This document shows, piece after piece, positions 1,967 through 30,858 of a stretch of 31,496 nucleotides of DNA (positions are counted from its first letter, which is position 1; each line of letters opens with the position of its first letter). The position numbers and the translations under genes are program-made. The notes beneath the pieces were generated by a model that made no database searches, was not told the origin of the DNA, and saw nothing but the letters and a program-made list of their open reading frames with translations. Source of the DNA: a virus (Duplodnaviria; Caudoviricetes); the IMG/VR virus record IMGVR_UViG_3300044676_003853, positions 1 through 31,496 of that record. One strand, 5' to 3'.

Positions 1967-4444
1967 TTATGGGGCATCAGACAACATATTACCTAAATCT
2001 GGTGCCCTGCCTGGTTCATCACGCCCAGGACGCCACCAATACCGTTGCCCAGTTTCGCGTCTATATCTGCTTTCTAAGCGCCGCATCTTCTGGCCGGCTT
2101 TAGGGTCTGTGTATCTTTTCATTCTATCGAACACCATACGCTCTAACCCCAGGCGCATATACCAAAGGGATACGCCAGGCGTGTACCTGGAAGCAAAACT
2201 AACAGCTTCCGTTGCGGCGTTGGTATCCGCTCCATGTGCGGCTTCAAGCAAATTGCCCACAGTCAGCTTTCTAACATCATCAATAAAGCCTACCACTGGC
2301 CCAGCAATAGTCATCTCTAGCCCTCGGTCATGCCGATTTACCTCACTGAACAGAAAATCTCCATAGATGCCGAGGCCACCGCCCTGCAAGAAGGCAGCAA
2401 GCCAGAACTCTGTGCCTTCCATTGGCCGAGGATCGCGGCCCTTGCTCATTTCTTTGAGCTGCATAGCAAAGGCACCCATAACAGTTGTGCTAATAAGAAG
2501 ATCCGCAAAGTAACCGCCTTTGCCTTTTATGCCGGCTTGGGCCATCCCGCGCATCAAATGGGTATTAATCAGGGTAACACCGAAATTCTTATACATGGCC
2601 ATAGATCTAAGCAGCTCACCCTGCAATGTTCCTGGTTGCGTGTTTCCAATTAAAGTTGCTCTACCCTTGAGGCTGGAACTAGGAACGGCAAAGTTTGTCT
2701 CAGCGTCCACCATTTCCATGACGCGGGTAGCAAGGTCTTGAGCCAAGCGAGGGTTTATATCATCACGAAACTCGATATCCTCTGCCCGTAAGAACGTAGC
2801 CCCTTCATACTCATATGGGTCAGTTGACCGGATAATGTCCCATTTGTCAGACCCGATCCCGTACTTTTCCAAGGTCTGCCGCAATGCGGGGTCAAGATCA
2901 TTAAAAGCTCTGCCAACATTATCTGCCAGGGTCCCATAGAACTCCATGCCAAAAGCCCAGCGACCAGCATTAGTAAATGGGGAAAGCAATGACGCCTTCA
3001 TGGTAAAGTCAGCAATTCGCCTGGTGATCTCTGGACCAGATATATCTCCAACATAACGCATTTGCGCTGCAGCGACAGTCATCCAGCCTTCAGCAATCAA
3101 TCCCATACGAATAGCCGTTTTACCTCTTTCCTCGACAGTCAGTGGGTTTAGCTGATCCAGGTATTGAGTAACGGTTCTAACTTGAGGCAACCCAGCTGAA
3201 CGCCTGGCAATGCGCTGAAAGTTAAGATCAGTTAAAGCAGATATAGAAGCGGCACCCAGCTGCGCTGATTGCAACACTTGTCTAATTCCTGCCATTGTTG
3301 CTGCAAACCGGCCCCCGCCAACAGGCGTGTTTACGTTTCCGGTTGCAGCCATATACAGATCTTCTAGCTTTTTGCCAGCTCTGTTGGCCCTGCTTTCCTC
3401 GGCAACATTGCCAGCTGCACGTTTTGCAATGGTTGTTTTCATAAAGTTGATTGTTGATCTTGGGTTTGGCCCCAGGATCTCCATCAATGCGATATCCCTA
3501 GACATAGTGCTGATGTGGCCCATCATGGTATCAAACGCATCAGGGTTCCCAAATTTAGTCTGGTACTCCATCCATGAGTCTGCATCTCTAAACACCAGGA
3601 ACCTGTGGTCAGTGCGCCTGTTTGCCATGCTCTTGCCGCGTCCGGCAGCTGCGCCAGGCGTGATCTTTGCCATCCCGTCTGTGCGGATTGTTTCGTATAC
3701 ATCTTTCAAAGCAAGCTCAAGACGGGCTGGCGTCATTGGCAAGCCGGTGCCCTCATCGACCATTCTTTCAACATTCAATCGAGGGGCAATAAAATCTCGC
3801 CATTCCTGGAATGTCGCTTTTCTTACTTGCAGTGTGTCGTGGAACTGCGGCAATCCCCAGCCTTGGCGCTGTACTATCCTGCCACCAGCTGCATTAAATC
3901 TTTTCCGCAGATACTCAGCTGTCGTGGCCCAGGCTTGTGCAAACTCTCTCGCAGAGGCATCTCCGGTTTCTTCTCCGAACACCTCCCGAACCATACTGTG
4001 CAGCTTGGCTTTGTTCCTGGTGCCGCCAATCAAATTTTTACGGAAAGATGCCAGGACGTTATACATATTCCTGGTTGCGGCATTGGTCACAGCATTAACA
4101 CGGTTTTCAAATGCGGAAAACTTGGCGCCTTCGTCCCTAGCAAGATGCGCTATCGCTGCTCTATACGGGTCTGCTTCACCACGATAGTTACGGTATTCAT
4201 CTAAGTTTTTAGTGATTTGTTTCCAGTTTTGGTACGCTAAGATTTTTTGGCGCTTTCGGTGTAAAGCGATATTTTCTAATGCGCTGAACGTATCCCGCCC
4301 AGCTTGTGAAGCTGCTTGCCCTGGTGACATTCTGCCCTGGTACTGAGCCTCCAGGTCATCAAACAAATCACGGGCCTCTGACGCCTGTTCTGGCGTGATG
4401 GCCCCTTCTGTCTCAGCGTTGTCTATGCAACCACGCAAACTCAT
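1967..4444 (-). CDS. Internal virion / DNA ejection protein (BPP-1/epsilon15-like, ~825 aa)
   Basis: Start re-called at ATG 4444 (MSLRGCIDNA), ATGA overlap with the upstream stop. C-terminal KGRDPRP...FWLAAFLQGGGLGIYGDFL...AGP motif characteristic of the last ejection protein of such podophages; position immediately before the tail fibre. Confidence 0.75.
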   Translation of the reverse strand: MSLRGCIDNAETEGAITPEQASEARDLFDDLEAQYQGRMSPGQAASQAGRDTFSALENIALHRKRQKILAYQNWKQITKNLDEYRNYRGEADPYRAAIAHLARDEGAKFSAFENRVNAVTNAATRNMYNVLASFRKNLIGGTRNKAKLHSMVREVFGEETGDASAREFAQAWATTAEYLRKRFNAAGGRIVQRQGWGLPQFHDTLQVRKATFQEWRDFIAPRLNVERMVDEGTGLPMTPARLELALKDVYETIRTDGMAKITPGAAAGRGKSMANRRTDHRFLVFRDADSWMEYQTKFGNPDAFDTMMGHISTMSRDIALMEILGPNPRSTINFMKTTIAKRAAGNVAEESRANRAGKKLEDLYMAATGNVNTPVGGGRFAATMAGIRQVLQSAQLGAASISALTDLNFQRIARRSAGLPQVRTVTQYLDQLNPLTVEERGKTAIRMGLIAEGWMTVAAAQMRYVGDISGPEITRRIADFTMKASLLSPFTNAGRWAFGMEFYGTLADNVGRAFNDLDPALRQTLEKYGIGSDKWDIIRSTDPYEYEGATFLRAEDIEFRDDINPRLAQDLATRVMEMVDAETNFAVPSSSLKGRATLIGNTQPGTLQGELLRSMAMYKNFGVTLINTHLMRGMAQAGIKGKGGYFADLLISTTVMGAFAMQLKEMSKGRDPRPMEGTEFWLAAFLQGGGLGIYGDFLFSEVNRHDRGLEMTIAGPVVGFIDDVRKLTVGNLLEAAHGADTNAATEAVSFASRYTPGVSLWYMRLGLERMVFDRMKRYTDPKAGQKMRRLESRYRRETGQRYWWRPGRDEPGRAPDLGNMLSDAP

Positions 4445-7400
4445 ACCGCGCACTCCCGCAATCTATCGAGCATATTTTTATCCTGTTGAATATCATCCAA
4501 CATCTGACGCCTGGTAACTGTAACAGCTATCTGGTTGCCGGCATCATCCACTGTGCTGCCAATGGGGATTTCGGTTTCGTCTAGCGCTTGCCTTGCTGCG
4601 ACTTGGGCTTGTTCGACTCTAGATACTGGCGCAGCTTCTGGGATTGCAGCTTCATCTGTTCTGCCCTCTGCTCCCCTTTCTGCTCGGCTTCGCTCCAATT
4701 GTAGCTGGACGCCATCAATGGCTGCTTTTGGTTCTGGGCCGTTGAAGCTGTCATCGGTAAGTCTTGGTCCGACATCGAGTCCACCATTGTTGTCAATGTT
4801 TGCGTATCCATCAAATATGCCTTCCTCTTTTAAAGTATAATATGTTTGCGTTGGGTTGTCACCAACCATCCGTATATAATCAGGTCCTATCAACCGGCCT
4901 GTTTCAACAAATCTGCCAAACATACGCCGCCGCGCTTCTGGGTAAGCGACTTCCATGTTTATCAATTTTACTTCATAGCCGGCATCTTTTAGCTCTTGTT
5001 GCAACTTGCGTATGCTGGCGGGGTTATCCCCAACTTTTGGGACAACCACGTTTAAACCGAAATCTTTAACAGTATTAAGCAAGCCCTTGGCTATTTCTGA
5101 GCTTTCTTCATGCACCGCCATAGCGCCGATGCCGCCTTGGTACTCTGGCATCGCTTTTTTAATTTCATCCGAGTCAATAATTGCAGCCCGTTGTTGAATT
5201 GCGATTGGATTTGCCAGGGTGCTTTTACCGGCAGCTGGTGGGCCAATTAAAATTGTTGCCTTACGATCATACGAAACTGGCGCATCAGGCACCTCAAGGC
5301 CCATTTCTCGGTATGGTAAGGTTTGCGCATCCTCAAATGCTTTAAATATTGCGTTGTCATAGCCAATAATTTCTTCGCCATCAAAATCAAATGTGCGATT
5401 TGCTTGCCATGCCTGGCTGCCATAATCTGGCGCATTTACTGTTTGCGGTATAGATTGCGCTTCTTCTAGCGCCTGGACAACAGCTGGATGTGCGTCAATC
5501 GTTGCTTCGTCAGCGCCTTCGTCAATTAATCGTTTTAGATCCTGGCGTAAATCAGCATCTTCTTGGAAACCTTCTTGGCGGGTGGCAGCCGGTTCCTCTG
5601 GCGGCGCACGGCCAATGGCCTGTTCTTCGCTAATCAGGTCGGTTTCTAGCTGATCTGCCTGGCGCTGCACACCTGGACCATTAGGGTCATCAAACAGGCT
5701 TACGTCTGGCTCTGGCTCTGCCGCACTCGCGCGGCCTTCCGTTGGAGCATTGATAGACTGTCCAACATCGCCAGCTGAGAGCCGATCAAAATCGCCTGAT
5801 TCAATTGATCGTCTGACAGCTTCGATGAAGCCTCTAGTAGCTTGTCCGTAGCTGCCGCTTTCTCTGGCTTGCCTTGCTGCAGCTGTGAGGGCGTCTGAGA
5901 GAGGCCCTTTTCTGTTTGCTTGCGCTTGTAAGAGGCTGATCGCTTGCGAGTCATTGCTGGCTCTCCTTTCATTTGCTTTCTGTGCTAGTTGGTTGCCTTC
6001 TGCTTCAAGGCGTTGTGCATTGCGTAACAAACTGGCAAATGCAGCTTTGTCCTGGCCCAGCTGCTTTCTCGCCTGGTCAAGTACCTTTGCCCGTTCCAGG
6101 AAATAACTTTCGGTAATTATCTCCTCACCAAATAATGATTCCTGTGTTCTTGTTTCTGCGCCGGACTCGATGACCTGGCGAACAATAGACTCTGCCTGGT
6201 ACTCGTTTGCTGGGTCAGTTTTAGATAAAACTTGGATAGCGTTCTTTTGCAACCCTGGGTCATCTGGTATTAACCGGCCCACGATTGCACCATAATTAGC
6301 TGGAACCACCCCGTTAATAATAGCGCCAAATGTTTCATCGTCTAACAGCGTCAGGCCTCTGGCTTGCTGCACTAGGACAGATCGAGGCGGCAACTCTCCG
6401 GCTCGTTGCGGCGCATCTCTTAACACCTTCGCAGCATCAATAGCTGTGCCGGTACCCTCTTTAATGTTTTTGACAGCGGCAATAACCCTGGCCATGTCAG
6501 GCGTAATACCATCAGACTCGCGCAACGTATGCCCAAGCAGCTCTATTTTTTGGCTTGGGTCTTGTGACTTGATACGTTTTGCCAGGCCCAGGCGCTGGTG
6601 CCCGTCTGCAATAAATTTGCGGCCATCAGCAAACTCATAAACAACAATTTGCCCAGCTGCTATGGGGTCCCAGGTTGTAACGCCCTGCAATCGCTCAGTA
6701 ACGCCAAACTCGTCACCACCGGCCTTGAATTGAAATAACTCCGCATCTACAGCAACCTCATCTGGGTCAAACACTTTGACAAGCCCGTCAACCTTGTCAG
6801 CGTCTGTAACGCTCAACAATGGCCGTGGAGGCGTTGCAGATGCGTCCGGCATAGTAGGAGCCACATTTTCGTCAACGGCTGCTACGGCGTCAGCTAGGCG
6901 TTGTTCATGCTCGGCCTCTGCGGCAATCCTGCTTGGCAAAATAGGTTTTTCTGGTTCAACCACTTGTTCACCGGCGCGGCGCTTTTGCTCAATTTTTATG
7001 GCATTACGTTCTCTAATCATTCCGTAGTTAATTTTGCCAGATTTTGTTTGAGCTTCTATTTTTCTTTCTAATGTATTTAAAGCAGCGGCAAGGGAAGCGT
7101 CATCCAAGTCTTTTACAGCTGGGATACCCTCTATCGTTTCTAATTTAAAATTAAGATCGTATGGTGTGCTTTGGGAAAGCTCATCTAATTCTAATATTTT
7201 TTCTTCCCCATCCGCGCTTCGGACAATAATCCCACCAGATTCACTTCGCTTAACAACTTGAGCGACAGATGCCGTACCGTCTGGACTATAAACAATAATG
7301 TCATCTGGATTTCCCGTGTTAAGGGGATTGTCAGCAACAATTTCTTCTAGCTCTGTTGCCAGGTCCTCTGCAATTTGCCCGTCCGGTGTTTGTCTAGCGC

Positions 7401-8172
7401 CGGTTGAGCGTATTGCTTGGATGCCTTTTTTGGCTTGTTCTGTTGTTATGCTTACTGCTTTGCCGGCGCCACGAAACGCAAACGGAAAAGCAAAACCAAT
7501 CGCCCCACCGTATTTAACAGCGTTCCAATATTGCTCATTAGTATAGGGCATACCAGTTTCCTGGTGCCACCGCTGTACTGGTATTTGAGCCAGGGCCTCC
7601 GATCCGGCACCCAGGGCCGCTTCTTGAAAGGCCATGCCCCACAAAGATTTTGCGCCACCAAACAACATAGATGAAATTAAAATAGGGTCATCTAGCCCCT
7701 CGTACATTTCACCTAATGTTCTTACTGCACCGGCTGATGTAGAAGGGGATTCCCCGCTGACACGCAAATAATCTTCACGGGCGTTTCTTGCCATCTCTCC
7801 TGCTTGGGATGCAACAGTTTCTGGAGTGTATAATCCTCGGTATTGCTCGAACTCTGGATATCTATCTATTGCTTGATTTAACTTAGCCAGGCTTTGATTA
7901 AAAACAGATGTCTGCTTTTCCGGCTCAAACAATCGAATACGAAAAGCAACAGACGGATTGTGGAATGTTTCCCCAACATTTGCCGCGTTCATCTCGTCAA
8001 TCACAGGCTGCAATATTTCTTGGTATGTCTTGGCCTTAGATGTGGACGTTAATGCAAGTTTGCTATAAGTGGTCGCCGCGTTCCAGTTTTCTTCCAGGGA
8101 CGGCGTAGGTTCTTCCTGCAGCTGATAACCGCGTTGCTCTAATGACTCTGTTTTTTTAAAAAGAAAAGTCAT
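4441..8172 (-). CDS. Large internal virion protein with ParB/Srx-like and Zeta-toxin-like kinase domains (polyvalent protein, ~1243 aa)
   Basis: Start likely ATG 8172 (ATGA overlap). Gly/Ala-rich hydrophobic ejection-protein N-terminus; IADGHQRLGLA ParB-like motif (DGHQR at 6592-6606); Walker A GPPAAGKS (5221-5244) followed by IIDSDEIK and RRRMFGRFVETGRLI, as in Zeta-toxin family kinases. Confidence 0.75.
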   Translation of the reverse strand: MTFLFKKTESLEQRGYQLQEEPTPSLEENWNAATTYSKLALTSTSKAKTYQEILQPVIDEMNAANVGETFHNPSVAFRIRLFEPEKQTSVFNQSLAKLNQAIDRYPEFEQYRGLYTPETVASQAGEMARNAREDYLRVSGESPSTSAGAVRTLGEMYEGLDDPILISSMLFGGAKSLWGMAFQEAALGAGSEALAQIPVQRWHQETGMPYTNEQYWNAVKYGGAIGFAFPFAFRGAGKAVSITTEQAKKGIQAIRSTGARQTPDGQIAEDLATELEEIVADNPLNTGNPDDIIVYSPDGTASVAQVVKRSESGGIIVRSADGEEKILELDELSQSTPYDLNFKLETIEGIPAVKDLDDASLAAALNTLERKIEAQTKSGKINYGMIRERNAIKIEQKRRAGEQVVEPEKPILPSRIAAEAEHEQRLADAVAAVDENVAPTMPDASATPPRPLLSVTDADKVDGLVKVFDPDEVAVDAELFQFKAGGDEFGVTERLQGVTTWDPIAAGQIVVYEFADGRKFIADGHQRLGLAKRIKSQDPSQKIELLGHTLRESDGITPDMARVIAAVKNIKEGTGTAIDAAKVLRDAPQRAGELPPRSVLVQQARGLTLLDDETFGAIINGVVPANYGAIVGRLIPDDPGLQKNAIQVLSKTDPANEYQAESIVRQVIESGAETRTQESLFGEEIITESYFLERAKVLDQARKQLGQDKAAFASLLRNAQRLEAEGNQLAQKANERRASNDSQAISLLQAQANRKGPLSDALTAAARQARESGSYGQATRGFIEAVRRSIESGDFDRLSAGDVGQSINAPTEGRASAAEPEPDVSLFDDPNGPGVQRQADQLETDLISEEQAIGRAPPEEPAATRQEGFQEDADLRQDLKRLIDEGADEATIDAHPAVVQALEEAQSIPQTVNAPDYGSQAWQANRTFDFDGEEIIGYDNAIFKAFEDAQTLPYREMGLEVPDAPVSYDRKATILIGPPAAGKSTLANPIAIQQRAAIIDSDEIKKAMPEYQGGIGAMAVHEESSEIAKGLLNTVKDFGLNVVVPKVGDNPASIRKLQQELKDAGYEVKLINMEVAYPEARRRMFGRFVETGRLIGPDYIRMVGDNPTQTYYTLKEEGIFDGYANIDNNGGLDVGPRLTDDSFNGPEPKAAIDGVQLQLERSRAERGAEGRTDEAAIPEAAPVSRVEQAQVAARQALDETEIPIGSTVDDAGNQIAVTVTRRQMLDDIQQDKNMLDRLRECAV

Positions 8173-10385
8173 CGCAGTGGTTCCTTGCCCCACAAAACAC
8201 GCATATCTATTTCAAACGGCTCCCCATCAAAGCCCATCACTTTTACAAAAGAAATATTATTTGGGTCAGCGTGGACAAAAATATATCTATCATCCCCAAT
8301 GGCTTGAGGAAAAATATTATCGTTTTCTTTTATTTCATTTAACATACCGGCGTCTATATCGCGGCCAGAAGCTGTCTTAAATTTTTCCGGCGTTAAGTTG
8401 CTAATAAGGGTTTCCATGTCGGGTGCGCTAAGATACGGGGGCACTAAGACCTGGCGATCACGAACTGTTCTAACGCCGCCAAGCCCCGCATTGTCCATAT
8501 TTCCATCACCGCCTAGTGCTAAATTTATAGCAATTTGCATTTCTTTATCGCCGGCAGCTTTCTGTCTGACCATGCCGCTTCTGCTCATGTTCGATCTAAA
8601 GATAGCTATAGCAGCTTCGTATGTAGCGCCAGTCACAGCTGCGGATTGTTCATTTAACGAACTGCCAACAGTTTCGTGGAACAATAACTCAATGTCGGTT
8701 TTAGTAATATCTGCCGGCATTGGGCCGCCTTCTTTGCCTAGCGCGATACCTTCTAAAATTTGACGGGCTGTTTTTGTTTTGCCCATCAACATTAGGCCAC
8801 CAACATGAGCGAACACAGGGGCTTCTTTGCTTACTTGCTCTAGGACATCTGGGGAGTCTTGCCGGAAACCTTGAACAATAGCTCCTAGAGTCTCCATTTG
8901 GGTTTGCACATCACCGTTTTCTAAAGCATTTGTTACAACTTGCACTTCGCCTTCGCGTAACGGCCCAATGTTATAAGTAGGGTATGCGCTTTGCACCGTC
9001 TGGTAATCTTGCCGGCGTTTTTCTATCGAGCTAAATAATTCGTCTGGGCTGCCCCCAAACGCAATTGCTGACGGCTGAACCAGCCCAACATTCTGGGCGT
9101 GAGTCATCCCGTCTTTTTTAAGATTAGCTCTTGTGTTTGTAATAAAACTTTGGGCAGCGTCCCTGGCTTTGACCTCTAGCACTGTGTCAATGCCTGGACC
9201 GCCAGCGCCGCTTATGCCGCCCTGCAGCTGGTCTAAAGATCGTTGCGCTTCTTCTGGGGAAGATTGTCTATAAGCTGACAATATATTTTCAACAATTTTT
9301 AATTCTTGCAGCTCTGTTCTTGCCGAAAGATTTATAGGCTGACCAGTAGACGGATCTATAACACCGTCCAGAGATGTCAACTCAGTTTCTAATTTTACTA
9401 AAACAGCCCCATCAATTTGACCGCCGCCCTCTATTACTTTTGTTAAATCTGCAATTCTATCACTTGCCAGTTTGACCTGGCCCTTCATTACTTTAACGCC
9501 AGTGTTCATTTGTGTGCGTAAAGTAGATGCTATTTTTCTGGACGCATCCCTGCCAATAGCCTTTGGCGGCGATTTCTCTAGCTTTGAAATAAATTTTATT
9601 TGTTCTTGCACAGAGCCTAGTTCTGAAAAATCAAACCGGATGCCTTCCTCGATGGCTTTTCCCCTGGTTTCTAAAAATATTTTAGATACCTGTTCTTCGC
9701 TAAATTGAAGGTCCTGCATATAGAATTGAAGATTTTTTAACTCAGCATCTATAACCGCTAGTCGTATTTCATCGCTTGGAGAATTAGACGCCGCCAGCTG
9801 GTAAATGGTTTGTTGCCTGGTGTCGATGCCAACCAGGGCACGGCCCCTGGCGTCCTGCATTGCTTTCTTGTGATACCAATCTGCATAATTTTGTGTATAT
9901 ATACCGGCTTTTGCATTTAGTTTTGCTTGCAGCTCACCGGCCAGCAATGGGTTTAGATCCGACAATGAAGCCGGTATGCCATCTGTGACATCAGCCAGGT
10001 TAGCTTGAAAATCGTCTAATGACAGCTCTTGCTGTTCAGCGGCTGAAAGCACCTGGTTCATCTCTAAGATAGCCTGGGTTTCCAACTCAGCTGATGCAAT
10101 TCTGTTTGCTGTTTCTACAGCTGCGCGATCTTCAATAGTTCTCGGACCGCCAGCTTGCTGCATGGATGATAATACGGGCTGGGCACCCTCATCGGCCACA
10201 CGCTGCATACCGCGCTGTTTGGCCTCTCTTGACTCTTGCTCAAAAGAAAACTTGGCCATTCGGCTTACAGAGTCTGAAATAGTGCGATACATATTTCGCG
10301 TTTCTGCCAAAGCCGCATCTTCTAACGGCTTGACTTGCATCACCCGCTCTTCGCCGCCTTCGTATCTTAATATTCTAGGAGCCAT
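8169..10385 (-). CDS. Internal virion protein (738 aa, helical)
   Basis: Long helical Ala/Gln/Glu-rich ORF between the gp14-like gene and the large ejection protein; GGAG RBS. Function from synteny only. Confidence 0.6.
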   Translation of the reverse strand: MAPRILRYEGGEERVMQVKPLEDAALAETRNMYRTISDSVSRMAKFSFEQESREAKQRGMQRVADEGAQPVLSSMQQAGGPRTIEDRAAVETANRIASAELETQAILEMNQVLSAAEQQELSLDDFQANLADVTDGIPASLSDLNPLLAGELQAKLNAKAGIYTQNYADWYHKKAMQDARGRALVGIDTRQQTIYQLAASNSPSDEIRLAVIDAELKNLQFYMQDLQFSEEQVSKIFLETRGKAIEEGIRFDFSELGSVQEQIKFISKLEKSPPKAIGRDASRKIASTLRTQMNTGVKVMKGQVKLASDRIADLTKVIEGGGQIDGAVLVKLETELTSLDGVIDPSTGQPINLSARTELQELKIVENILSAYRQSSPEEAQRSLDQLQGGISGAGGPGIDTVLEVKARDAAQSFITNTRANLKKDGMTHAQNVGLVQPSAIAFGGSPDELFSSIEKRRQDYQTVQSAYPTYNIGPLREGEVQVVTNALENGDVQTQMETLGAIVQGFRQDSPDVLEQVSKEAPVFAHVGGLMLMGKTKTARQILEGIALGKEGGPMPADITKTDIELLFHETVGSSLNEQSAAVTGATYEAAIAIFRSNMSRSGMVRQKAAGDKEMQIAINLALGGDGNMDNAGLGGVRTVRDRQVLVPPYLSAPDMETLISNLTPEKFKTASGRDIDAGMLNEIKENDNIFPQAIGDDRYIFVHADPNNISFVKVMGFDGEPFEIDMRVLWGKEPLR

Positions 10386-10386
10386 T

Positions 10387-10887
10387 TTAATCTCCTCCGT
10401 ACATACCGCTTGGCGCCGTATATGGAGTATTTGGTACAGTTACACTTTTACTGCCGAACTCAGGATACCCAAGCTGAGATTGTTGTGCATGGCCAGACGC
10501 CAAAGAACCCATCGCCTCTATGTATGAGTTAGCAACAGCGACCTCTCCAGCATATATGTAATCCTGGGCCTGTCCTTCGGCCCTGCCTAATTGAATATCA
10601 ATATTGTCTTTGACCGTGCTGTAATCACGGACGCCGTATTTTAATGACCCTGTTTGAACAGCTGTTATGTTTGTTGCGCCACCACCAACCTGGGAACGCG
10701 CTAGGCTTGTTGACATAATGCTATTAACTTTAGAAAGGATTTGTGCGCCTTTCATTTGCAAGTTTATTGCGGTAATTCTACCAGACAGCCGCGCATCAGC
10801 CGCCTTTCGGTTGTACATCGCTTGCTTAGTCTGACCCCCAAGTATGGCGCCAAATGCACCTACGACTCCAGCTACTAACTGTGACAT
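10387..10887 (-). CDS. Internal virion protein (T7 gp14-like)
   Basis: 166 aa with Gly/Ala-rich hydrophobic N-terminus, directly after tail tubular protein B. Confidence 0.6.
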   Translation of the reverse strand: MSQLVAGVVGAFGAILGGQTKQAMYNRKAADARLSGRITAINLQMKGAQILSKVNSIMSTSLARSQVGGGATNITAVQTGSLKYGVRDYSTVKDNIDIQLGRAEGQAQDYIYAGEVAVANSYIEAMGSLASGHAQQSQLGYPEFGSKSVTVPNTPYTAPSGMYGGD

Positions 10888-10888: not shown

Positions 10889-13423
10889 TTAATTCCCCAC
10901 GCTCATCTTGTACTCAAGGCCAAGCAAAGTCATTTTAAGCGGCTCTGTTTGAGTAATAGTAATTTGTCCGGTTCCAGAAAACCCTAGAAGGCCATGCACG
11001 GTTTTTGTTCCAGTAAACTCTGCAACAGGGTTCCCCAGCACACTTACTCCAAAATTTCTAAACGGCACCAGCTTGCTGTTGATACTGAGGTTTTGCGTAT
11101 TCGCAACAACAGCGTCAACCTGGACAATACGTTTTTTAACGCCTTGTATGGTGCCCTGGGGCAGCTTTGGCTCTGCCGGCATAGTCACCATAGTAACATT
11201 ATAGTTCAGTCCCACCTGGCAAGATGACGAGGCGGCGGTGCCAAACGCAACAGTAAAGGGAGATATAGGAACGACTTGGCTAGGCTCAACAATGCCATCC
11301 CGTATTACCTCAACAGATTTTCCTGCTAGGTGGTCCATATTTACACTAGAAACAGCGCCGCCAATTACAGCACTGTCCAGCGTCAAATCCTCATCAAATT
11401 TTTCTAAATAATAATTTGTGTCATCCGGCGCGGTAAAATCTGTTTTAGTTAGCCTTACGTTGTCAGAAGATGTAACCGTGAGATTATTGTCACCAGAAAC
11501 CGTCCTAGTGACTGTCACAACAGCTGCAGCTGGGTTAGGCGCATCAAATGCACTCACAGAGTTTATTGCAGTTGCTAAGTTATCAGCAACCTGGTCATTT
11601 GTTAGCACCCCACCAACTTGAAACTGAAAATTAGTAGATGGCGTTCCGGTAACGGCGGTAAATGTTGTTGATACTCCGGCATTGTCCGTTAGCACAATTG
11701 TTTCGTTATCAACAATATTAGCTGCGTCACTTACAGTAATTGTGCACGTTGCATAGGGAAGAACGGTTCTTTTTACAATTGTGTATGTCTCCGCAATTTC
11801 ATTTGCTATTGCTATAAAGTCTCCGTCAGTTGTGAACTTACTTGGGGCCACAACATTTTGTTCTTGGAGAACAGAATAGACTGTCATCGAGCCATCATCG
11901 CCATTCACCAAAAAGAGGCGGTCAGTTTCGTCAGTTGATGTGGCTCTACGGATAGACATATCCACAGGCCCTTTTAACAAATGGCTACTAAATACAGACA
12001 AATTACTGGCCGAATAACTAGATGTTGTGTCCGAGAACTGAAAAGACATCAAAGACTTTCCCTGGCGCTGCACAAATATTGTGGACCCCTTTAAGTCCTC
12101 GATGGGCACCCCTGGGCGGCTGCCGATCCGGCTTTGTGGCTTCACCAAAAAATTAGTAGGCGTCACCGGCTCGTTGCCTAGCTGTGATACAACAAATTCA
12201 CCAGCTGTTGTAAATATCTGCAAATCAGGACCAGGGTTTAAAGTAGTTATAACATTGAGCTGGTTTGTGTTTATGGTAGCTTCAACACTTTCATCATCCA
12301 GGCCGGTGCCAACGTCAAAGTTAAAATAGTCAATAACTTTGCTGCCCCATACTGTGTTTGGCCTAGATGAACTACCGCCAAAATATAGCCGGCCTTCATG
12401 GAAAGCGGCTGAACGTGGCCATCCTCGTACCGCACTCCAAACATCTTCGTAACCATGTTCTGACTCCCAATCGCCGGCAGTAATCGCGCCTGTGTCAAAA
12501 AACGGAACTTCGACATATGCCTTCATTTGTGTATCACTGACATATTCAACATACCTGGCACGGCCAAAGCCATTAACCACGTTAAGGTATTCATCTACCG
12601 CCGCTGGTTTAAACGCTTTGATTTCGTATTGGCTAGTAGCATCTGGAGCCGTATTCCAATCTGGGTAGACAGTTAGGACTTTAGTAGATGCAACATAATC
12701 CTCAACGTGTCTGGTTTGCCCAGATCCAGTGCCAGCCGTTATTTCTATAAACATCCCATTTGGCTGGTCATCGCTTGTAAAACTGGTTGCAGACTTCAAT
12801 GTAATTGTATCAATGCCACCCGCTTGCGCTGTGCCGTTGTCAGTTGTGACGCTGGACGCTGTAATCGTAATATTACCCTCGATACCGCTGGGTGTAATTG
12901 TAAATGTCGGTTCATGTGTATCTAAAACGTATGCGTGTTTAGGGATAAAAGTCAGAGGCAGCACCCCAACAGTCCAATCTGTATCAGAGTTACGCAGCAA
13001 TCTTTGCGGTTCCAAATCCTCGTGTACCAGGATCAAGGTATCAACAGCCTGGATATAATTAAGCTGGTCAATAATCCCAGCGGTGATAGCTGATGCAGTT
13101 ATATAATCATTTCCGCTGCCATTGATGTTAGTTTGCAAAACACCATTTTTAAAAACGTAGATACGGCCAGTAACAACGACCAGCAAATAACTGTCATTTA
13201 CACTGTATTCAAATGGAATCAGCTTAAAGCTGGTAAATGAACTGCCAAAGTTATAAATAAACTCAAGACCAGCTCTACGCTTGGCCCCGCCTTGCGGCTG
13301 AATAGTTACATTCTCTGCAGACTCAAGAGCGTTCTGATACTGCTGCAAGTCCGTTCTTGCGCGGAGTAAAGGGTCCAGCTCACCAACACTGAAATTAGTT
13401 TGAAACTGAACAATACGAGCCAT
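10889..13423 (-). CDS. Tail tubular protein B (nozzle, T7 gp12-like)
   Basis: QTNFSVGELDP.L.AR.DL..Y, GGAKRRAG, GWPRSAAFHEGRLYFGG, LQIFTTAGEF motifs; 844 aa; follows tubular protein A. Confidence 0.9.
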   Translation of the reverse strand: MARIVQFQTNFSVGELDPLLRARTDLQQYQNALESAENVTIQPQGGAKRRAGLEFIYNFGSSFTSFKLIPFEYSVNDSYLLVVVTGRIYVFKNGVLQTNINGSGNDYITASAITAGIIDQLNYIQAVDTLILVHEDLEPQRLLRNSDTDWTVGVLPLTFIPKHAYVLDTHEPTFTITPSGIEGNITITASSVTTDNGTAQAGGIDTITLKSATSFTSDDQPNGMFIEITAGTGSGQTRHVEDYVASTKVLTVYPDWNTAPDATSQYEIKAFKPAAVDEYLNVVNGFGRARYVEYVSDTQMKAYVEVPFFDTGAITAGDWESEHGYEDVWSAVRGWPRSAAFHEGRLYFGGSSSRPNTVWGSKVIDYFNFDVGTGLDDESVEATINTNQLNVITTLNPGPDLQIFTTAGEFVVSQLGNEPVTPTNFLVKPQSRIGSRPGVPIEDLKGSTIFVQRQGKSLMSFQFSDTTSSYSASNLSVFSSHLLKGPVDMSIRRATSTDETDRLFLVNGDDGSMTVYSVLQEQNVVAPSKFTTDGDFIAIANEIAETYTIVKRTVLPYATCTITVSDAANIVDNETIVLTDNAGVSTTFTAVTGTPSTNFQFQVGGVLTNDQVADNLATAINSVSAFDAPNPAAAVVTVTRTVSGDNNLTVTSSDNVRLTKTDFTAPDDTNYYLEKFDEDLTLDSAVIGGAVSSVNMDHLAGKSVEVIRDGIVEPSQVVPISPFTVAFGTAASSSCQVGLNYNVTMVTMPAEPKLPQGTIQGVKKRIVQVDAVVANTQNLSINSKLVPFRNFGVSVLGNPVAEFTGTKTVHGLLGFSGTGQITITQTEPLKMTLLGLEYKMSVGN

Positions 13424-18652: not shown

Positions 18653-18931
18653 CTATTTAGGCGTGTTGCCGCCAAGTTTGCGTTTTTCTTCGATGTCATC
18701 TGTGCGCTGGGGGGACATTAACAGCCTTAGACCGCCTGTCCTTCGCGCACGTTTTCGTGCGGTCAATCGTTTCAACGCCTCTTTCTCGGCAGCCTCTGCC
18801 CGTTGTTCCTGGCGACTTAACGCCTCTGACATTTTTGGAGTTTCAACTGGAGGCGGTTTATCCGGCACCAGACCTAGGGCCTTGCCAACACCTTTAACAA
18901 GCTTGCCAATTGGCTTAAAAATACTGCTCAT
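18653..18931 (-). CDS. Small virion protein, paralogue 1
   Basis: MSSIFKPIGK...KRARRTGGLRLLMS; ATGA-coupled to the GNAT gene. Confidence 0.55.
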   Translation of the reverse strand: MSSIFKPIGKLVKGVGKALGLVPDKPPPVETPKMSEALSRQEQRAEAAEKEALKRLTARKRARRTGGLRLLMSPQRTDDIEEKRKLGGNTPK

Positions 18932-19410
18932 TTTCCAAACCTAACCATCATGTAATAATCTTCACCCTCTGGACCGAACCGCTCCATCAGGCTTTCCTCA
19001 TTAAAGTACAGTGTTTTTGCAAATTTGTATGCGGGTTTGTTTGCTACTGAAACGGCGATCTGAAGGCGCTTTAGGTCATATTCGTACATCATCTCGTCTA
19101 AAAACCCTCGACACTCTTTCACAACAGCTATCGGATTCTGGCGAATGTTCTTGCCCGGGAGCAGCCAAACCTCACCCACCCCTTTCCAGTATGGGCGTAG
19201 GCCAAAAATACATATTGGCTTCCCCTTGGCCATGATCGTGTATGTAAATTCCTCTATGAGTCCGTCATCAACGTATGAGATATAATCATCAAAGTTACCT
19301 TCGTAGTGATATCTTTCATAATCTCCCAGCTCCATAGAGATTAAATGCGATTTACGATAGGGGACCAGCTGGTGCCCCATGTTGATACTTGGGTGTGGGA
19401 TAAAGCTCAT
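18928..19410 (-). CDS. GNAT-fold acetyltransferase-like protein
   Basis: GKPICIFG...W.GVGEVWLL...LKRLQIAV...N..A.KFAK.L.F..E..M..FGPEGEDYYMM pattern; located between terL and portal. Confidence 0.65.
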   Translation of the reverse strand: MSFIPHPSINMGHQLVPYRKSHLISMELGDYERYHYEGNFDDYISYVDDGLIEEFTYTIMAKGKPICIFGLRPYWKGVGEVWLLPGKNIRQNPIAVVKECRGFLDEMMYEYDLKRLQIAVSVANKPAYKFAKTLYFNEESLMERFGPEGEDYYMMVRFGK

Positions 19411-22228: not shown

Positions 22229-23059
22229 CTAGATTCGCCGTAGACTGGCGCTGGTTCTTTTTAGTACCTGGTTAACCTGGTCGCTGTCTGAGCTGCCCAG
22301 AGCACGGCTGACGGGCTTGCTAAAGTATCCCAGGCCCCTGGCTAGATCCCTAGCGTTCTTCTGGCAATATGTGCAGTGATCCCGCACAACCTGGCCCCAT
22401 TGCTGGATGGTCAGACCTTGCCTGACCCATGACTCAGCCAGTTGCTCGTCACGTTCATTCCAGATCCTGGGTGTGCCGTATGCCTCTGCAGCATCTATAA
22501 ACAACTTCACTATTCTTTTTGCATCTCCCTTTATATCGTTACTATTACTCGTTAGTGTCTCGTTTAGTGCAACCTCTGGTGTTGCATGTGTGTCAACCTC
22601 AGATGTTGCACCTGTGTGCAACCTCTGGTGTTGCACCTGTCCCTTTGCAGCTGCAACCTCTAGTGTTGCACCAGCCAGTCCTGCTTCACGCTCGGCCAGG
22701 TCCATTTGTTCCCTGGCTGACAGGTTGCTGCGGCTTGTCTTGTCACTGGTGATGTCGGGTTCGTACTTAACTTTCACTGTGTTGGTCCTTTGGTCTTTAT
22801 ACTGTTTCCTGGCGTAAACCAGATAGCCGGTGTCAAACAGCTTCTTTATCTGTCGCTGTACTGCTTGCCTGGATATGCCGAGATCTGACGCAAGCCTGGC
22901 CTGGCTGACGAATGTTCGGCCCAGCTCGTCCGTGTAACCACAGATGGCTGCCAAGACTGTCAGGGCTGCCGAGCGGTTTATCCGCTGGTCCCTTACGGCT
23001 CTGATTGGCAGGATGCTGTACTTTCTTAGATCTTTGCTTCTGATTGTTGCCGGCTTCAT
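22229..23059 (-). CDS. Replication initiator (lambda O-like, N-terminal HTH)
   Basis: ALTVLAAICGY.D..G.TFVSQARLASDLGISRQAVQRQIKKL...GYL winged-HTH; iterons inside the coding linker. Confidence 0.8.
   Translation of the reverse strand: MKPATIRSKDLRKYSILPIRAVRDQRINRSAALTVLAAICGYTDELGRTFVSQARLASDLGISRQAVQRQIKKLFDTGYLVYARKQYKDQRTNTVKVKYEPDITSDKTSRSNLSAREQMDLAEREAGLAGATLEVAAAKGQVQHQRLHTGATSEVDTHATPEVALNETLTSNSNDIKGDAKRIVKLFIDAAEAYGTPRIWNERDEQLAESWVRQGLTIQQWGQVVRDHCTYCQKNARDLARGLGYFSKPVSRALGSSDSDQVNQVLKRTSASLRRI
22568..22670. repeat. Four 19-bp palindromic iterons (replication origin)
   Basis: TGCAACCTCTGGTGTTGCA at 22568 and 22617, GTCAACCTCAGATGTTGCA at 22592, TGCAACCTCTAGTGTTGCA at 22652; adjacent AT-rich tract at about 22495-22560. 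Confidence 0.85.
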
Positions 23060-23219
23060 CTTGCAGCTGCCTGGCGATTGCTTGAATAAGCTCTGGTTCT
23101 GTCCATTGCTGTCGTCCTTCCTCTTTTGGCGCCAGGAGTTTTGCTATTGCAAACACCCCCATTCCATCGAGGATGCAATCAATATAAACACGCCTGGCGT
23201 GATCGAGCCATTCAGTCAT
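22833..23219 (-). CDS. Hypothetical protein, 3' half overlapping the initiator gene
   Basis: Start coupled to the rusA stop; fills the 23060-23219 gap. Confidence 0.5.
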   Translation of the reverse strand: MTEWLDHARRVYIDCILDGMGVFAIAKLLAPKEEGRQQWTEPELIQAIARQLQDEAGNNQKQRSKKVQHPANQSRKGPADKPLGSPDSLGSHLWLHGRAGPNIRQPGQACVRSRHIQASSTATDKEAV

Positions 23220-23673
23220 CGGACCAGCTCACCGTTGCCACCATCAACGGCTGCCCGTATATCTTCTTGACTGTCAGCTCATAAACCTGGGCATCATCCT
23301 TATAAACGATGCCATTGAACGCATCTAATACTGCCTTGGCCACGTTGTCAATATCTGGCCGTCCTGGCGTGTAAATGCCAAGCAGCGCGGCATCACGCTT
23401 CCACTTTGGCCAGGACTTGGGTATCTCAAACTGTGCCAGGATGTGCATCTTGACCGGCTGCTCAGTTAAATCCATGCCCTGGAACTGCATCTCCAGCCTG
23501 GCTGCCTCGCCGATCTTATGCTCATAATTCTTGGTCTTGAGCGGTGTATATGCCCGATTGTTGGCGAACCTGGGCCGGCCTTTGCCAACCGGCTGCCCTG
23601 GCACGACAACGTGCAGCGCATCCTGCAGCGGCTGACTGGTGTAACGATCTTCCATCAATTTCTTTTGAGCCAT
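23212..23673 (-). CDS. rusA: RusA-family Holliday junction resolvase
   Basis: PGQPVGKGRPRF, PDIDNVAKAVLDAFNGIVYKDDAQV catalytic motifs. Confidence 0.9.
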   Translation of the reverse strand: MAQKKLMEDRYTSQPLQDALHVVVPGQPVGKGRPRFANNRAYTPLKTKNYEHKIGEAARLEMQFQGMDLTEQPVKMHILAQFEIPKSWPKWKRDAALLGIYTPGRPDIDNVAKAVLDAFNGIVYKDDAQVYELTVKKIYGQPLMVATVSWSDD

Positions 23674-23909
23674 TGGCTGATGTGCTCCCGTCCGTGATTG
23701 TCTAAATCCGATTCAGCCTGGACCACATCTGATGTGATTCCATCAATGGTCTGTTCGACCTTGAGTCCAAGCTCGATCAACTCGGTTGCGACACGGGCCG
23801 AGCTGGTCATATTTTTTTCTGCCATGTCGTCTATTTTCTGCCTCAAACTTGCCGGCAGCCGAAAATAAAAGCTCACCAGGCCGTCTGATTTCTGGCGGGT
23901 TTTAGCCAT
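23655..23909 (-). CDS. Arc/MetJ-like ribbon-helix-helix regulator
   Basis: VSFYFRLPASLRQKIDDMAEKNMTSSARVATELIELGL; GAGGGG RBS; first gene of the leftward operon. Confidence 0.75.
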   Translation of the reverse strand: MAKTRQKSDGLVSFYFRLPASLRQKIDDMAEKNMTSSARVATELIELGLKVEQTIDGITSDVVQAESDLDNHGREHISQWLKRN

Positions 23910-23966
23910 TTATTGCCCCTCATCAAAAAAAAGTGCATAAAAATGCAAAAAAAAGCGATTGCGCTA

Positions 23967-23995
23967 TTGACAGTACGATATCGGATTGCTATTTA
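23967..23995 (+). promoter_or_regulatory. Rightward sigma70 promoter (early operon)
   Basis: TTGACA-17 bp-TATTTA, with TG extended -10 and an A-rich UP-like tract upstream. Confidence 0.75.
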
Positions 23996-23998
23996 CAA
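23970..23998 (-). promoter_or_regulatory. Leftward sigma70 promoter (regulator/replication operon)
   Basis: Minus strand TTGTAA-17 bp-TACTGT. Confidence 0.6.
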
Positions 23999-24033
23999 GG
24001 TGACTGGTTAGTTACTAACAGGAGATTGAACGG

Positions 24034-24231
24034 ATGAAATACTTACTTCCCATCGCCAAGGCGCTGAACATGACGATCGTCAAAGCCACTGACTGCGGTT
24101 ACGCCGGATACAAGGTCATCAACAACGAAACAGGGATGACCACTGGGATTCACTGCGACACGCTAGAAACAGTTGCCCATGAATTAGCCAAGTTAGCTGC
24201 CTATCGGATTGCAAACAAGGAGACTGCATAA
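24034..24231 (+). CDS. Hypothetical early protein (65 aa)
   Basis: First ORF after the promoter; AGGAG RBS. Confidence 0.7.
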   Translation: MKYLLPIAKALNMTIVKATDCGYAGYKVINNETGMTTGIHCDTLETVAHELAKLAAYRIANKETA

Positions 24232-24515
24232 TGACCATGACTCACAAACACGAAAAGTTCGTTGATTACTTTTACTGCAGCAAGAACTGGGATGACCTTG
24301 ACTGGTTCAAGTTTCATGTCGAGATAGACGGCCATAACGGCCTGGTCACTGCCGAGCATCATCGGGACAACGACAAGTTCTTTGTGACTTGGCGGGAATG
24401 GTTCGGGGGTGACAACTTCGGCGAAAACAAGCGGGTCTGGATCAGCGGTCACGACACGGTGCAGCTCATCAAAGAGACTGGCGATATTTACGGAATGGCA
24501 GAGGAGCTTCAATAA
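24231..24515 (+). CDS. Hypothetical early protein (94 aa)
   Basis: AAGGAG RBS; TAATG coupling. Confidence 0.7.
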   Translation: MTMTHKHEKFVDYFYCSKNWDDLDWFKFHVEIDGHNGLVTAEHHRDNDKFFVTWREWFGGDNFGENKRVWISGHDTVQLIKETGDIYGMAEELQ

Positions 24516-24715
24516 TGCTTAAAACACACGAGCAAATGATGAGCGAAATAATCGCGGATAACTTTCAGAGAGCTGCGGTGCAGCTCAATGCTGCTTACAA
24601 AAAGATCAAGAAGTTTGATCCTGACAACAAAGAAAACGCTGTCGCTGTTCTCTGGCTGCAAGCCAAGGTTTATGAGATGGCTAATGAGTACCAAAACAAA
24701 GCGGAGGTTAAATAA
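24515..24715 (+). CDS. Hypothetical early protein (66 aa)
   Basis: GAGGAG RBS; TAATG coupling. Confidence 0.7.
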   Translation: MLKTHEQMMSEIIADNFQRAAVQLNAAYKKIKKFDPDNKENAVAVLWLQAKVYEMANEYQNKAEVK

Positions 24716-25293
24716 TGGCTAAATTCAAACCAACACGGGAGTTTTATATTCCCAAGGGCGGCGTCAGAGTCGCTGACAAAAACAGCACCGCTGTGTGCTA
24801 CATGATCGGCAAGGACAATTACCATGTCGTGATGGGGTTTGCCGGCAAGCGGCAGAAGCCTGACTTCCACTACCGGTTCACGACTCTGGAAAACGCCCAG
24901 GCTTACGTTGCCAAGTTCTTCAAGGACGTCCAGGCAGCCGAGGATCACAAGGCCCAGGCCAAGCAGCGGGAAACTGAACGGCTTGCCAAGATGCGGGACA
25001 AGATCAAGGCCGGTGACATCTATTACACCAGCTGGGGTTATGACCAGACCAACATTGACTTTTACCTGGTAGTGGACCGGACAGCTGCCACAGTTGAGGT
25101 GGTTAAGATCGGCAAAGATTGTGTCGAGGAAGTGACCGGTGTTGATTATGTGGTGCCAAACCCAATGGTCAAGTGGGGTGACACAATCAAGCGGAAGATC
25201 AACACGACTGGTTTTAAGATTGCCAGCTACGCCTACGCTTACCCCTGGGATGGCCAGCCAAAACATGAAACAGCAGCAGGATGGGGACACTAG
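24715..25293 (+). CDS. Conserved phage early protein (SWGYDQTNIDFY family)
   Basis: GGAGG RBS; GDIYYTSWGYDQTNIDFYLVV motif recurrent in phages and mobile elements; function unknown. Confidence 0.7.
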   Translation: MAKFKPTREFYIPKGGVRVADKNSTAVCYMIGKDNYHVVMGFAGKRQKPDFHYRFTTLENAQAYVAKFFKDVQAAEDHKAQAKQRETERLAKMRDKIKAGDIYYTSWGYDQTNIDFYLVVDRTAATVEVVKIGKDCVEEVTGVDYVVPNPMVKWGDTIKRKINTTGFKIASYAYAYPWDGQPKHETAAGWGH

Positions 25294-25776
25294 ATGACAG
25301 CGACTCTAACAATACCTGATTGGGAAATGGCCAAGGGCAAGCCGTGTTGCGCTGTCCTGGCTTGCGCGGTGGCCGCCCAGCGGCCATTCAAAGATGCCTG
25401 GCAGTTTATGACCAAGCGCCGGACTGGCCGGTGGCGGGGCAGCATGTTTGACCGAGACATATTCAAGCTGCTCGATCACTTGGGTGTAAAATACAAAGCG
25501 ATCACGGGATTCGACTTGATTGCGAGGGGTAACCCAACGCTGGAACGGTGGGCCGCCAACAGAGCCAAGCCTGACCAGCTCTACTTCATTGTAACCACTG
25601 GCCACGCTCAGACGTTGTTCAACGGTACAGTCATGGATCAGCGGGGGCCAAAGCCACTCGCCGAGTTCTGGGGGCGCAGAAAGCGGATCAGGTTCGTTCT
25701 TGAGATCGCGCTGCCAGCTGGTCAAGACCCAGCGACATTTGGATTGCCTCTGTTTGACTTTGCGGGGGCTGCATGA
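25294..25776 (+). CDS. Putative papain-fold (Cys-His-Asp) protein
   Basis: CCAVLACAVA helix, then YFIVTTGHAQTLFNGTVMD. Confidence 0.5.
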   Translation: MTATLTIPDWEMAKGKPCCAVLACAVAAQRPFKDAWQFMTKRRTGRWRGSMFDRDIFKLLDHLGVKYKAITGFDLIARGNPTLERWAANRAKPDQLYFIVTTGHAQTLFNGTVMDQRGPKPLAEFWGRRKRIRFVLEIALPAGQDPATFGLPLFDFAGAA

Positions 25777-25943
25777 TGCTTGAGTTTATCAAATGGTATC
25801 TCGACAACCAGGCCGAGATCGAGGGCACAGAGAGCAGCAACGCTGCTCCGGCCAAGATCATCACTGAGCTGAAGAACCGCACCTGGTCCATGACCCATGA
25901 GCAGCGGTGGATCGTTCACCAGATATTCGCGGAGGCAAAATGA
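25773..25943 (+). CDS. Hypothetical protein (56 aa)
   Basis: Not in the ORF track. MMLEFIKWYLDNQAEIEG...IFAEAK; ATGA-coupled at both ends. Confidence 0.65.
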   Translation: MMLEFIKWYLDNQAEIEGTESSNAAPAKIITELKNRTWSMTHEQRWIVHQIFAEAK

Positions 25944-26077
25944 CAAAAGATGATTTGATCGGGTTTTTTATTCTGATGCTGTTCACTCTTGGCTGGTTCG
26001 ACTGGCTGTGGATGTTCGGTGTCGAGTCCAGCCGCAGTTGGACTTGGTGGGCTTTGATCGCTCACTTTGGCAAATAG
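25940..26077 (+). CDS. Small Trp-rich membrane protein (45 aa)
   Basis: Not in the ORF track. MTKDDLIGFFILMLFTLGWFDWLWMFGVESSRSWTWWALIAHFGK; GGAGG RBS. Confidence 0.65.
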   Translation: MTKDDLIGFFILMLFTLGWFDWLWMFGVESSRSWTWWALIAHFGK

Positions 26078-26089
26078 GAGGAAAAAATA

Positions 26090-30687: not shown

Positions 30688-30858
30688 TCAGCCTCGCAAG
30701 ATTACACTCAATAAAAGCAGGATCATAGTACCAGCAGTACCAATCATAATGTGTTCAATGCGTTTAATACGCAGGATAGTTTCCTTCCAGCGTTCTGCAC
30801 ACACGGCCTCATGTGTATCCATCTGAGCCTTTACAGATTCGGCTGTTGGCTTTGCCAT
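30688..30858 (-). CDS. Small membrane-anchored protein (HEAVCAERW family, 56 aa)
   Basis: Not in the ORF track. MAKPTAESVKAQMDTHEAVCAERWKETILRIKRIEHIMIGTAGTMILLLLSVILRG; TAATG coupling. Confidence 0.7.
   Translation of the reverse strand: MAKPTAESVKAQMDTHEAVCAERWKETILRIKRIEHIMIGTAGTMILLLLSVILRG

Follow-up and report, generated by a model that had tools for sequence, protein, structure and literature searches.

The window analysed here is the entire 31,496-base record of a marine-type podophage (IMG/VR record IMGVR_UViG_3300044676_003853), whose genes combine T7/epsilon15-type morphogenesis with lambdoid replication and recombination; the genome appears to be circularly permuted, since genes of the tail-fibre region sit at both of its ends. 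The gene of interest, gene X, encodes a large multidomain protein (Table 1) and is part of a block consisting of tail tubular A, tail tubular B, a 166-residue gene, a 738-residue gene, gene X, an 828-residue gp17 homologue, whose start gene X overlaps, and a tail fibre. This order is constant wherever flanks are retained among 62 IMG/VR loci and equals that of epsilon15 gp11-gp17: gene X comes after both tail tubular genes and lies between the gp15-like gene and the gene for internal virion protein (IVP) D. Hardies 2016 (PMC4819975) identifies gp17 of epsilon15 as IVP-D and considers gp15 and gp16 to be candidates for IVP-C; such internal virion proteins are described there as bringing passenger domains into the cytoplasm (citations here and below are to excerpts of the papers named). 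The two genes upstream of gene X have no family match in scans of Pfam, PHROG and NCBIfam.

Table 1. Features of gene X and its neighbours; positions are those of the window.
Feature	Position	Strand	Basis
Gene X, 1243-residue putative internal virion protein of the epsilon15 gp16 slot, with passenger domains	4441..8172	-	ATG start, synteny, homology
N-terminal helical scaffold, residues 1-284	7321..8172	-	family hidden Markov model, structure model
Slot A, optional 127-residue insert	6940..7320	-	alignment to relatives
Predicted ParB/Srx-fold nucleoside triphosphate (NTP)-binding domain, residues 461-574	6451..6792	-	VIA, motif conservation
Predicted helical domain like the ParB/Noc DNA-binding domain, residues 575-670	6163..6450	-	VIA, Foldseek
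Beta-hairpin followed by long helices, residues 671-810, candidate dimerisation domain	5743..6162	-	models, conservation
Acidic low-confidence linker, residues 811-880, left edge of slot B	5533..5742	-	model, composition
Pre-kinase subdomain, residues 881-965	5278..5532	-	co-occurrence with kinase
Slot B cargo, Zeta-like P-loop kinase, residues 966-1135	4768..5277	-	Pfam, Foldseek, motifs
Conserved C-terminal scaffold segment ending in Cys	4441..4584	-	family conservation
Downstream 828-residue epsilon15 gp17 (IVP-D) homologue	1967..4453	-	PHROG 684 E 2e-175; epsilon15 gp17 E 4e-52
Upstream 166-residue and 738-residue genes, gp14 and gp15 slots	8169..10887	-	synteny

Comparison with 120 listed of the 381 homologues found resolves the protein into an N-terminal scaffold (residues 1-284), an optional insert (285-411), a ParB-like part (461-810), an acidic linker, slot B (881-1135) and a conserved tail (1197-1243). 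When the hidden Markov model (HMM) of the N-terminal family was run on 14 slot proteins from deposited phages, it matched eight of them at E<1e-5, including those of Vibrio 23E28.1 (404 residues; 7e-35), VP2 (1.5e-31), Pelagibacter Skadi-3 (gp29; 1e-16) and epsilon15 (gp16; 8e-6). These matched proteins are cargo-less and 390-640 residues long. At the other end, a cysteine lies within the last six residues in 87 of 102 family members; in cultured or deposited phages, all 14 proteins of the gp16 slot have one within the last eight. The N-terminal homology and the shared terminal cysteine together thus place gene X in the gp16-slot family, as a member whose conserved ends enclose inserted cargo. 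An earlier reading made from the letters alone (the sequence-only reading) had assigned the protein to the ejection-gene slot, which synteny and the HMM matches bear out. Its claim of a membrane-like N-terminus is only weakly supported: Gly/Ala-rich, mildly hydrophobic stretches are present near residues 164-182 and 224-242, but the peak 19-residue hydropathy of 1.32, at residue 164, stays below the threshold of 1.6 usually applied to transmembrane helices.

Within this scaffold, slot A is cleanly missing in two close relatives, loci L001 and L002 (gap 6916-7324, at 93-95% DNA identity); the insert is found in five of the 120 homologues and has no match in the ESM Atlas or NCBIfam. Two relatives (P0012 and P0057) possess an N-terminal extension (residues 1-274) with an N-N-P-G-N-I-R motif, which is typical of lysozyme-like virion domains; the extension marks a third cargo position. 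Further inserts occur in P0011 (residues 1055-1329) and P0073 (residues 340-520), one after the kinase and the other in slot A. One locus with a broken frame (L060) was excluded from one alignment (A2). At the junction with the downstream gene (4441-4453), the IVP-D protein starts with a cysteine in 26 of 26 distinct N-termini among the synteny loci; a disulfide or other bond joining the gene X protein and the IVP-D protein is possible.

The ParB-like part, encoded at 5743-6792, is present in all 120 listed homologues. An AlphaFold2 model of P0004, a relative 96% identical to gene X (predicted local distance difference test, pLDDT, 73), matches Noc and ParB in Foldseek at E 4.6e-4 to 4e-3 over about 220 columns. 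Modelled alone (pLDDT 79.5), the module resembles PadC (Z 7.6) and sulfiredoxin (Srx; Z 6.7) over its residues 1-114 and the DNA-binding domain of parS-bound ParB (6s6h; Z 7.0, root-mean-square deviation 6.6, 100 residues aligned) over residues 115-221, according to VIA. These Z values are middling, and the VIA list consists mostly of unspecific helical similarities to the final third of the module. In the ESM Atlas, ParB_N/HTH_ParB clusters are found at 0.91-0.93, and both the fold and an active-site arginine motif are those of the ParB/Srx superfamily. That motif, D-G-H-Q-R at 6592-6606, is nearly invariant: D523, G524, Q526 and R527, as well as N569, are retained in all 151 sequences and the histidine in 150. 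In canonical ParB, a catalytic glutamate precedes the corresponding asparagine; here, that residue is a lysine (K568) in 120 of 151 sequences, and the GERR and EN motifs of ParB clamps are absent. The first helix of the helix-turn-helix in the DNA-binding-like domain is apparently shortened. For residues 671-810, a structure search gave generic helical matches only, and the hairpin tip carries the motif Q-x-[S/G/T]-L-F-G (6127-6144; Q in 129, L in 144, F in 150 and G in 150 of 151 sequences). Taken together, the models suggest that the module corresponds to a ParB-type DNA-binding protein in its entirety. The sequence-only reading, which had seen a ParB/Srx domain here, was right about the ParB fold, as found by Foldseek, VIA and the Atlas, but not about a lone Srx enzyme, since a ParB-type helical domain is predicted to follow. 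Given the modelled combination of an NTP domain, a ParB-type helical domain and a hairpin with long helices, DNA gripping is the best guess for its function; clamp behaviour is a hypothesis at this stage.

Sequence databases have largely overlooked this module. None of 37 alignment members was matched by Pfam ParB or ddrB-ParB (PF18763) at E up to 5, NCBIfam does not recognise it, and no tyrosine reaches 80% conservation in the domain as the conserved tyrosine in the extra helix of DdrB-like ParB would. Searches of the Protein Data Bank by sequence were discarded, as the entire gene X protein yielded spurious polyubiquitin matches only and the ParB alignment only coiled coils. Nevertheless, a search with its profile yields 3710 clusters (50% identity), and the module is contained in the 2563-residue last ejection-slot protein of the T7-like cyanophage P-SCSP1g and in a 3912-residue protein of Ruegeria 45A6, both built on other scaffolds, and in polyvalent proteins bearing LPD38. 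The excerpted P-SCSP1u cryo-EM paper makes no mention of core proteins. Thirteen GTDB genomes carry the module of the gene X family, ten of which are labelled Alphaproteobacteria or alphaproteobacterial taxa, and the host of the phage is therefore probably an alphaproteobacterium; prophages containing the module are present in genomes of Aureimonas, Novosphingobium and Brevundimonas. The module is under strong constraint; compared with L001 and L002, the NTP-binding domain shows no non-synonymous against 19-20 synonymous changes and the DNA-binding-like domain none against 17-19, that is, no amino-acid change over 210 codons against 37-38 silent changes.

Two other functions may be considered for the module. 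Instead of gripping DNA, it could be a DdrB-like effector, an NTPase or DNase whose role is to break down or sense nucleotides or DNA of the host, in line with the Srx match (Z 6.7) of its NTP domain, the resemblance of DGHQR to Srx/GmrS-type motifs (DGQQR in GmrS; Silas 2025, GmrSD) and the proposal of Iyer 2017 (PMC5512222) that polyvalent ParB domains are NTP-regulated DNases or NTP sensors. We regard this as rather unlikely, considering that the NTP domain is always followed by an equally conserved ParB-like helical domain, that Pfam ddrB-ParB is unmatched, and that the swapped toxin cargo varies far more than the module does. About equally unlikely, and compatible with a DNA grip, is the docking of the ejected protein, via the hairpin tip, on the beta sliding clamp of the host and thereby on replication forks. 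The motif Q-x-[S/G/T]-L-F, which resembles the sliding-clamp-binding consensus, is present in 128 of 151 proteins, with 159 occurrences versus 19 in shuffled sequences and 126 of them at this position; moreover, phage Mu is reported to use the sliding clamp. Yet the shuffle test reflects conservation only, because the motif is a single inherited position, and the invariant glycine suits a structural turn. The dimerisation domain of ParB, too, consists of a hairpin and a long helix.

C-terminal to the acidic linker announced by the sequence-only reading (26% D+E), slot B of gene X contains a predicted P-loop kinase, likewise anticipated there. Pfam Zeta_toxin matches residues 971-1130 (4783-5262; E 2.5e-15), and the top Foldseek matches are zeta and PezT; both parts of the protein model as the expected folds, ParB-like and P-loop kinase. 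The pre-kinase subdomain (pLDDT about 90) is present in exactly those 105 of the 120 homologues that have the kinase. Walker A, D1000, D1002, K1005, H1021, E1023, R1083 and R1087 are conserved in 41 of 41 Zeta members. This set includes the lid arginines as well as the D-x-D that contains the catalytic base; both the Walker A lysine and the catalytic aspartate of a P-loop kinase are thus present. The ratio of non-synonymous to synonymous substitution rates in the kinase is 0.04-0.08, a sign of strong purifying selection. In zeta, UDP-N-acetylglucosamine (UNAG) is contacted by Thr118 and Arg120 (PMC3062530); by sequence alignment, this stretch corresponds to P-K-V-G in gene X, with proline in 38 of 41 members, and the UNAG-binding residues are missing. 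Judging from these residues, the kinase is probably active, probably not on UNAG and probably on another acceptor.

It follows that a true zeta activity, namely phosphorylation of UNAG to weaken peptidoglycan synthesis and ease DNA entry or lysis, is improbable. Zeta and PezT are, admittedly, the best structural and profile matches, the equivalents of K46 and D67 are retained, and a UNAG role has been suggested for MuF-fused zeta (Iyer 2017, PMC5512222). Aside from the replaced contacts, however, a small number of injected copies would act only once the wall has already been crossed, and the alternate cargo of the slot, a synthetase, has no cell-wall link.

This alternate cargo became evident from a survey of slot B in the 150 best representatives, in which Zeta occurs in 41, a RelA/SpoT-like (RSH-like) domain in 45, a short slot in 46 and other contents in 18; "short" means at most 170 residues, and some of these are partial proteins. 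Zeta and synthetase were never found in one protein (0 of 150). The RSH-like domain most resembles Tas1 (E 1.4e-21) and SaSAS, with RelA far behind, which makes it a likely (p)ppApp synthetase comparable to Apk2 of the MuF toxins (PMC12226406). Pfam additionally detects PBECR3 in three, ART-PolyVal in two and LPD38 in seven of 27 family proteins. In P0028 and L034, the synthetase-like domain in slot B is preceded by a second ParB-like domain that differs from the first. On a tree of the ParB module (116 complete members of 155 given), the four cargo labels change 54 times compared with 58.4 upon shuffling, with 17 of 200 shuffles as low, and well-supported sister pairs differ in cargo. A count over IMG/VR loci, biased by the queries used, covers 93 distinct complete proteins, of which 49 combine ParB with Zeta, 36 ParB with synthetase, four have Zeta only, three ParB only and one synthetase only. 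Overall, the gene X protein is a modular carrier in which a constant ParB module is combined with a freely swapped toxin-type enzyme.

The sequence-only reading had proposed a dedicated two-enzyme payload, and a related possibility is that ParB and Zeta form one coupled effector, auto-inhibited until ejection. ParB plus Zeta is indeed the commonest form in close relatives (105 of the 120 listed), and the pair recurs in five giant proteins, in both orders, as well as, with a different ParB, in gp114 of HCTV-5. The independent gain and loss of the two domains on the scaffold is, however, evidence against an obligate pair, as seen in the proteins with Zeta alone, ParB alone or ParB plus synthetase; cargo is near-random on the ParB tree, and the full-length model (predicted template modelling score 0.35) gives no sign of fixed packing. 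The dedicated payload was not upheld, and a coupled effector is quite improbable.

As the sequence-only reading had stated, no antitoxin gene is evident beside gene X, since the flanking genes overlap it; an epsilon/PezA antitoxin does not adjoin it, and Pfam epsilon is unmatched in the 32 window proteins scanned. More distant antidotes were sought in 82 virus records, where a search for HD_4 hydrolases gave four matches above the cut-off and one weak match, all in synthetase-bearing phages. In records at least 90% complete, the hydrolase occurs in two (strong) plus one (weak) of seven synthetase phages, in none of 18 Zeta phages, three of which are without the ParB module, and in the single empty-slot phage not at all (0 of 1). 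In G034, G035 and G038, it is encoded between a recombinase and a RecE-like gene, which are directly adjacent, without hydrolase, in the related Zeta phage G044; all four relatives have a serine-recombinase-like gene, and an integrase was not found among the scanned proteins of the window (22229-28556). The hydrolase-synthetase link is suggestive. As a general antidote the hydrolase was rejected, given its absence from four of the seven near-complete synthetase phages. Similarly, a 56-residue gene (30688-30858), present in five of five Zeta genomes at first comparison, was dismissed as a Zeta antidote when tblastn found it also in a synthetase locus and in an empty-slot genome; no Zeta-specific antidote gene remained after the candidates were tested.

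The hydrolase gene is located in the early/replication region and could protect the producing cell, which would fit a late action of the cargo, during expression of the structural operon (timing of assembly or lysis), or a cargo that never enters the cytoplasm. Late genes are highly expressed, so that most cargo molecules exist at that time. Against this, the cargo in these loci always sits between the conserved scaffold ends and is never a free gene, and we consider a late role to be just as improbable as a coupled effector.

The interpretation that we prefer, with slightly more confidence than doubt, is that the gene X protein is a packaged and ejected gp16-slot homologue carrying two independent passengers, a ParB-like DNA grip and a swappable toxin-type enzyme. 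It builds on the position of the gene, the homology of its scaffold, the order of its domains and their gain and loss independently of one another, on the finding that Zeta and the Tas1-like domain exclude each other, and on purifying selection, in combination with a predicted three-part ParB anatomy and a predicted kinase fold. According to this interpretation, the protein would be packaged in the virion and subsequently delivered to the host cytoplasm, where the ParB-like module is predicted to bind nucleotide and to grip the entering phage DNA, possibly as a membrane-tethered clamp like Noc that helps to hold, pull or shield the genome. The Zeta-like kinase is predicted to phosphorylate a nucleotide metabolite of the host in the first minutes of infection. 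Kinase and synthetase may represent alternative routes to one job, because enzymes of both kinds transfer phosphate from ATP to a 3'-hydroxyl; a brief, dose-limited upset of the nucleotide pools of the host, for which an adjacent antitoxin would not be required, is the likely effect.

Several points weigh against this interpretation. The presence of the gene X protein and of its ParB-bearing relatives in virions is a prediction, as is the cytoplasmic side of the inner membrane as the destination of the cargo. The match of the N-terminal HMM to epsilon15 gp16 is itself weak (8e-6 in a 14-protein database). Regarding the ParB module, DGHQR replaces GERR and the usual catalytic glutamate is mostly lysine, with arginine and asparagine retained; the VIA Z-scores are below 8, the root-mean-square deviation is 6.6 for the DNA-binding domain, and a profile-profile alignment to 14 host ParB proteins, colinear over 144 columns, is not significant, with an E of 0.2 versus 0.15 for a reversed control. 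The kinase has lost the strand-3 acidic residue of zeta in 38 of 41 members, and its activity may therefore be reduced. Finally, the hydrolase link probably stems from a single lineage, with four of seven near-complete synthetase phages lacking the gene.

A bolder version, which we put forward tentatively and consider doubtful, holds that a large family of marine alphaproteobacterial podophages both ejects a membrane-anchored, nucleotide-gated ParB/Noc-like clamp around the incoming genome and delivers one of two interchangeable ATP-dependent 3'-phosphotransferases (a Zeta-like kinase with a new substrate or a (p)ppApp synthetase), disarming nucleotide-dependent host defences before transcription of any phage gene. 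The ParB-like module, preserved nearly unchanged inside an ejection protein and represented by thousands of sequence clusters overlooked by Pfam, is a concrete candidate for how podophages other than T7 move and protect DNA after the tail tube has formed. The exchange of Zeta and synthetase constitutes a natural experiment on the benefit of virion-borne toxin domains, a question that is open for the MuF toxins as well; in addition, the substrate of the kinase may be a new one.

Among known systems, the closest are the virion-borne polyvalent proteins with DdrB-like ParB, RelA/SpoT and PBECR domains (Iyer 2017, PMC5512222), late-gene multidomain proteins that draw on a pool of ParB, RelA/SpoT, PBECR, ART, LPD38 and zeta-like domains. 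Gene X conforms to this type, combining at least two disparate effector-type domains from the shared pool in one virion-linked polypeptide; in contrast, its family is unmatched by ddrB-ParB, has a ParB-type helical domain and is built on an epsilon15 gp16 scaffold. In the excerpted text, zeta-like kinases are assigned to MuF proteins or conjugative elements and do not appear on ejection proteins of podophages, although the supplements may list such an architecture. The slot, the homologous ends and the concept of passenger domains are shared with epsilon15 gp16 as treated in Hardies 2016 (PMC4819975), where, as far as the excerpt goes, cultured members are mostly cargo-less (390-640 residues) and the examples are the N4 virion RNA polymerase, a methylase and muralytic domains.

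With the MuF toxins, including Apk2 (PMC5576092, PMC12226406), and with Tas1 of the type VI secretion system, gene X shares the interchangeable toxin domain, the virion protein as carrier (MuF) and an HD hydrolase as candidate antidote. MuF toxins have downstream immunity genes (Jamet 2017, PMC5576092), whereas gene X has neither a MuF domain nor a downstream immunity gene, its cargo is internal instead of C-terminal, and the hydrolase, where found in relatives, is kilobases distant. The kinase is similar to the UNAG kinases Zeta and PezT in fold, Walker A lysine, catalytic aspartate and lid arginines, but it has no adjacent epsilon, has the strand-3 E-G-T-x-R replaced and is fused into a virion protein. 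ParB, Noc and PadC, as CTP-dependent clamps, likewise comprise an NTP domain, a helical DNA-binding domain and a hairpin with long helix, all predicted for gene X, which differs by DGHQR for GERR, lysine before the asparagine, the shortened helix-turn-helix, the lack of a ParA partner and its location within an ejection protein. The ParB fold binds CTP, ATP or GTP with unpredictable specificity (PMC12704722); the terms "zeta", "DdrB" and "polyvalent" are absent from the main text of that paper, as excerpted.

The sequence-only reading knew of no characterised example of the pairing of ParB and kinase in an ejectosome and saw a candidate for an undescribed system. The pair as such is not wholly undescribed, given that gp114 of halovirus HCTV-5 is annotated as "zeta toxin and ParB nuclease domain protein" and that both domain types are listed in Iyer 2017; gp114 is encoded among head-morphogenesis genes and differs in its reverse order, its unrelated scaffold and its only faintly similar ParB (independent E-value 0.009). 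A review describes the zeta genes of haloviruses as having no known role (PMC4284463). For the architecture itself, no publication on a gp16-slot scaffold with ParB, Zeta or Tas1-like cargo was found in a search that covered few subscription papers. Hence, the concepts of polyvalent proteins, of internal virion proteins with passenger domains and of MuF toxins are already published; the gp16-slot scaffold with cargo, its ParB family (3710 clusters that Pfam does not recognise) and the exchange between Zeta and synthetase are apparently new.

Some observations concern other genes of these phages. Tail tubular B (10889-13423) has 844 residues here versus 671 in L001 and L002, whose other genes are 95-98% identical to those of the window; the nozzle, too, has a swappable insert. 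An IVP-A-like gene (GNAT, phrog_308; 18928-19410) adjoins the terminase in the window, and in epsilon15 and the relatives L019, L022, L035 and L040 it is placed after tail tubular B. Lastly, HQ332136 (L064), named Dunaliella viridis virus SI2, has a phage gene block of the type described here with an empty slot B, and looks like a bacterial podophage.

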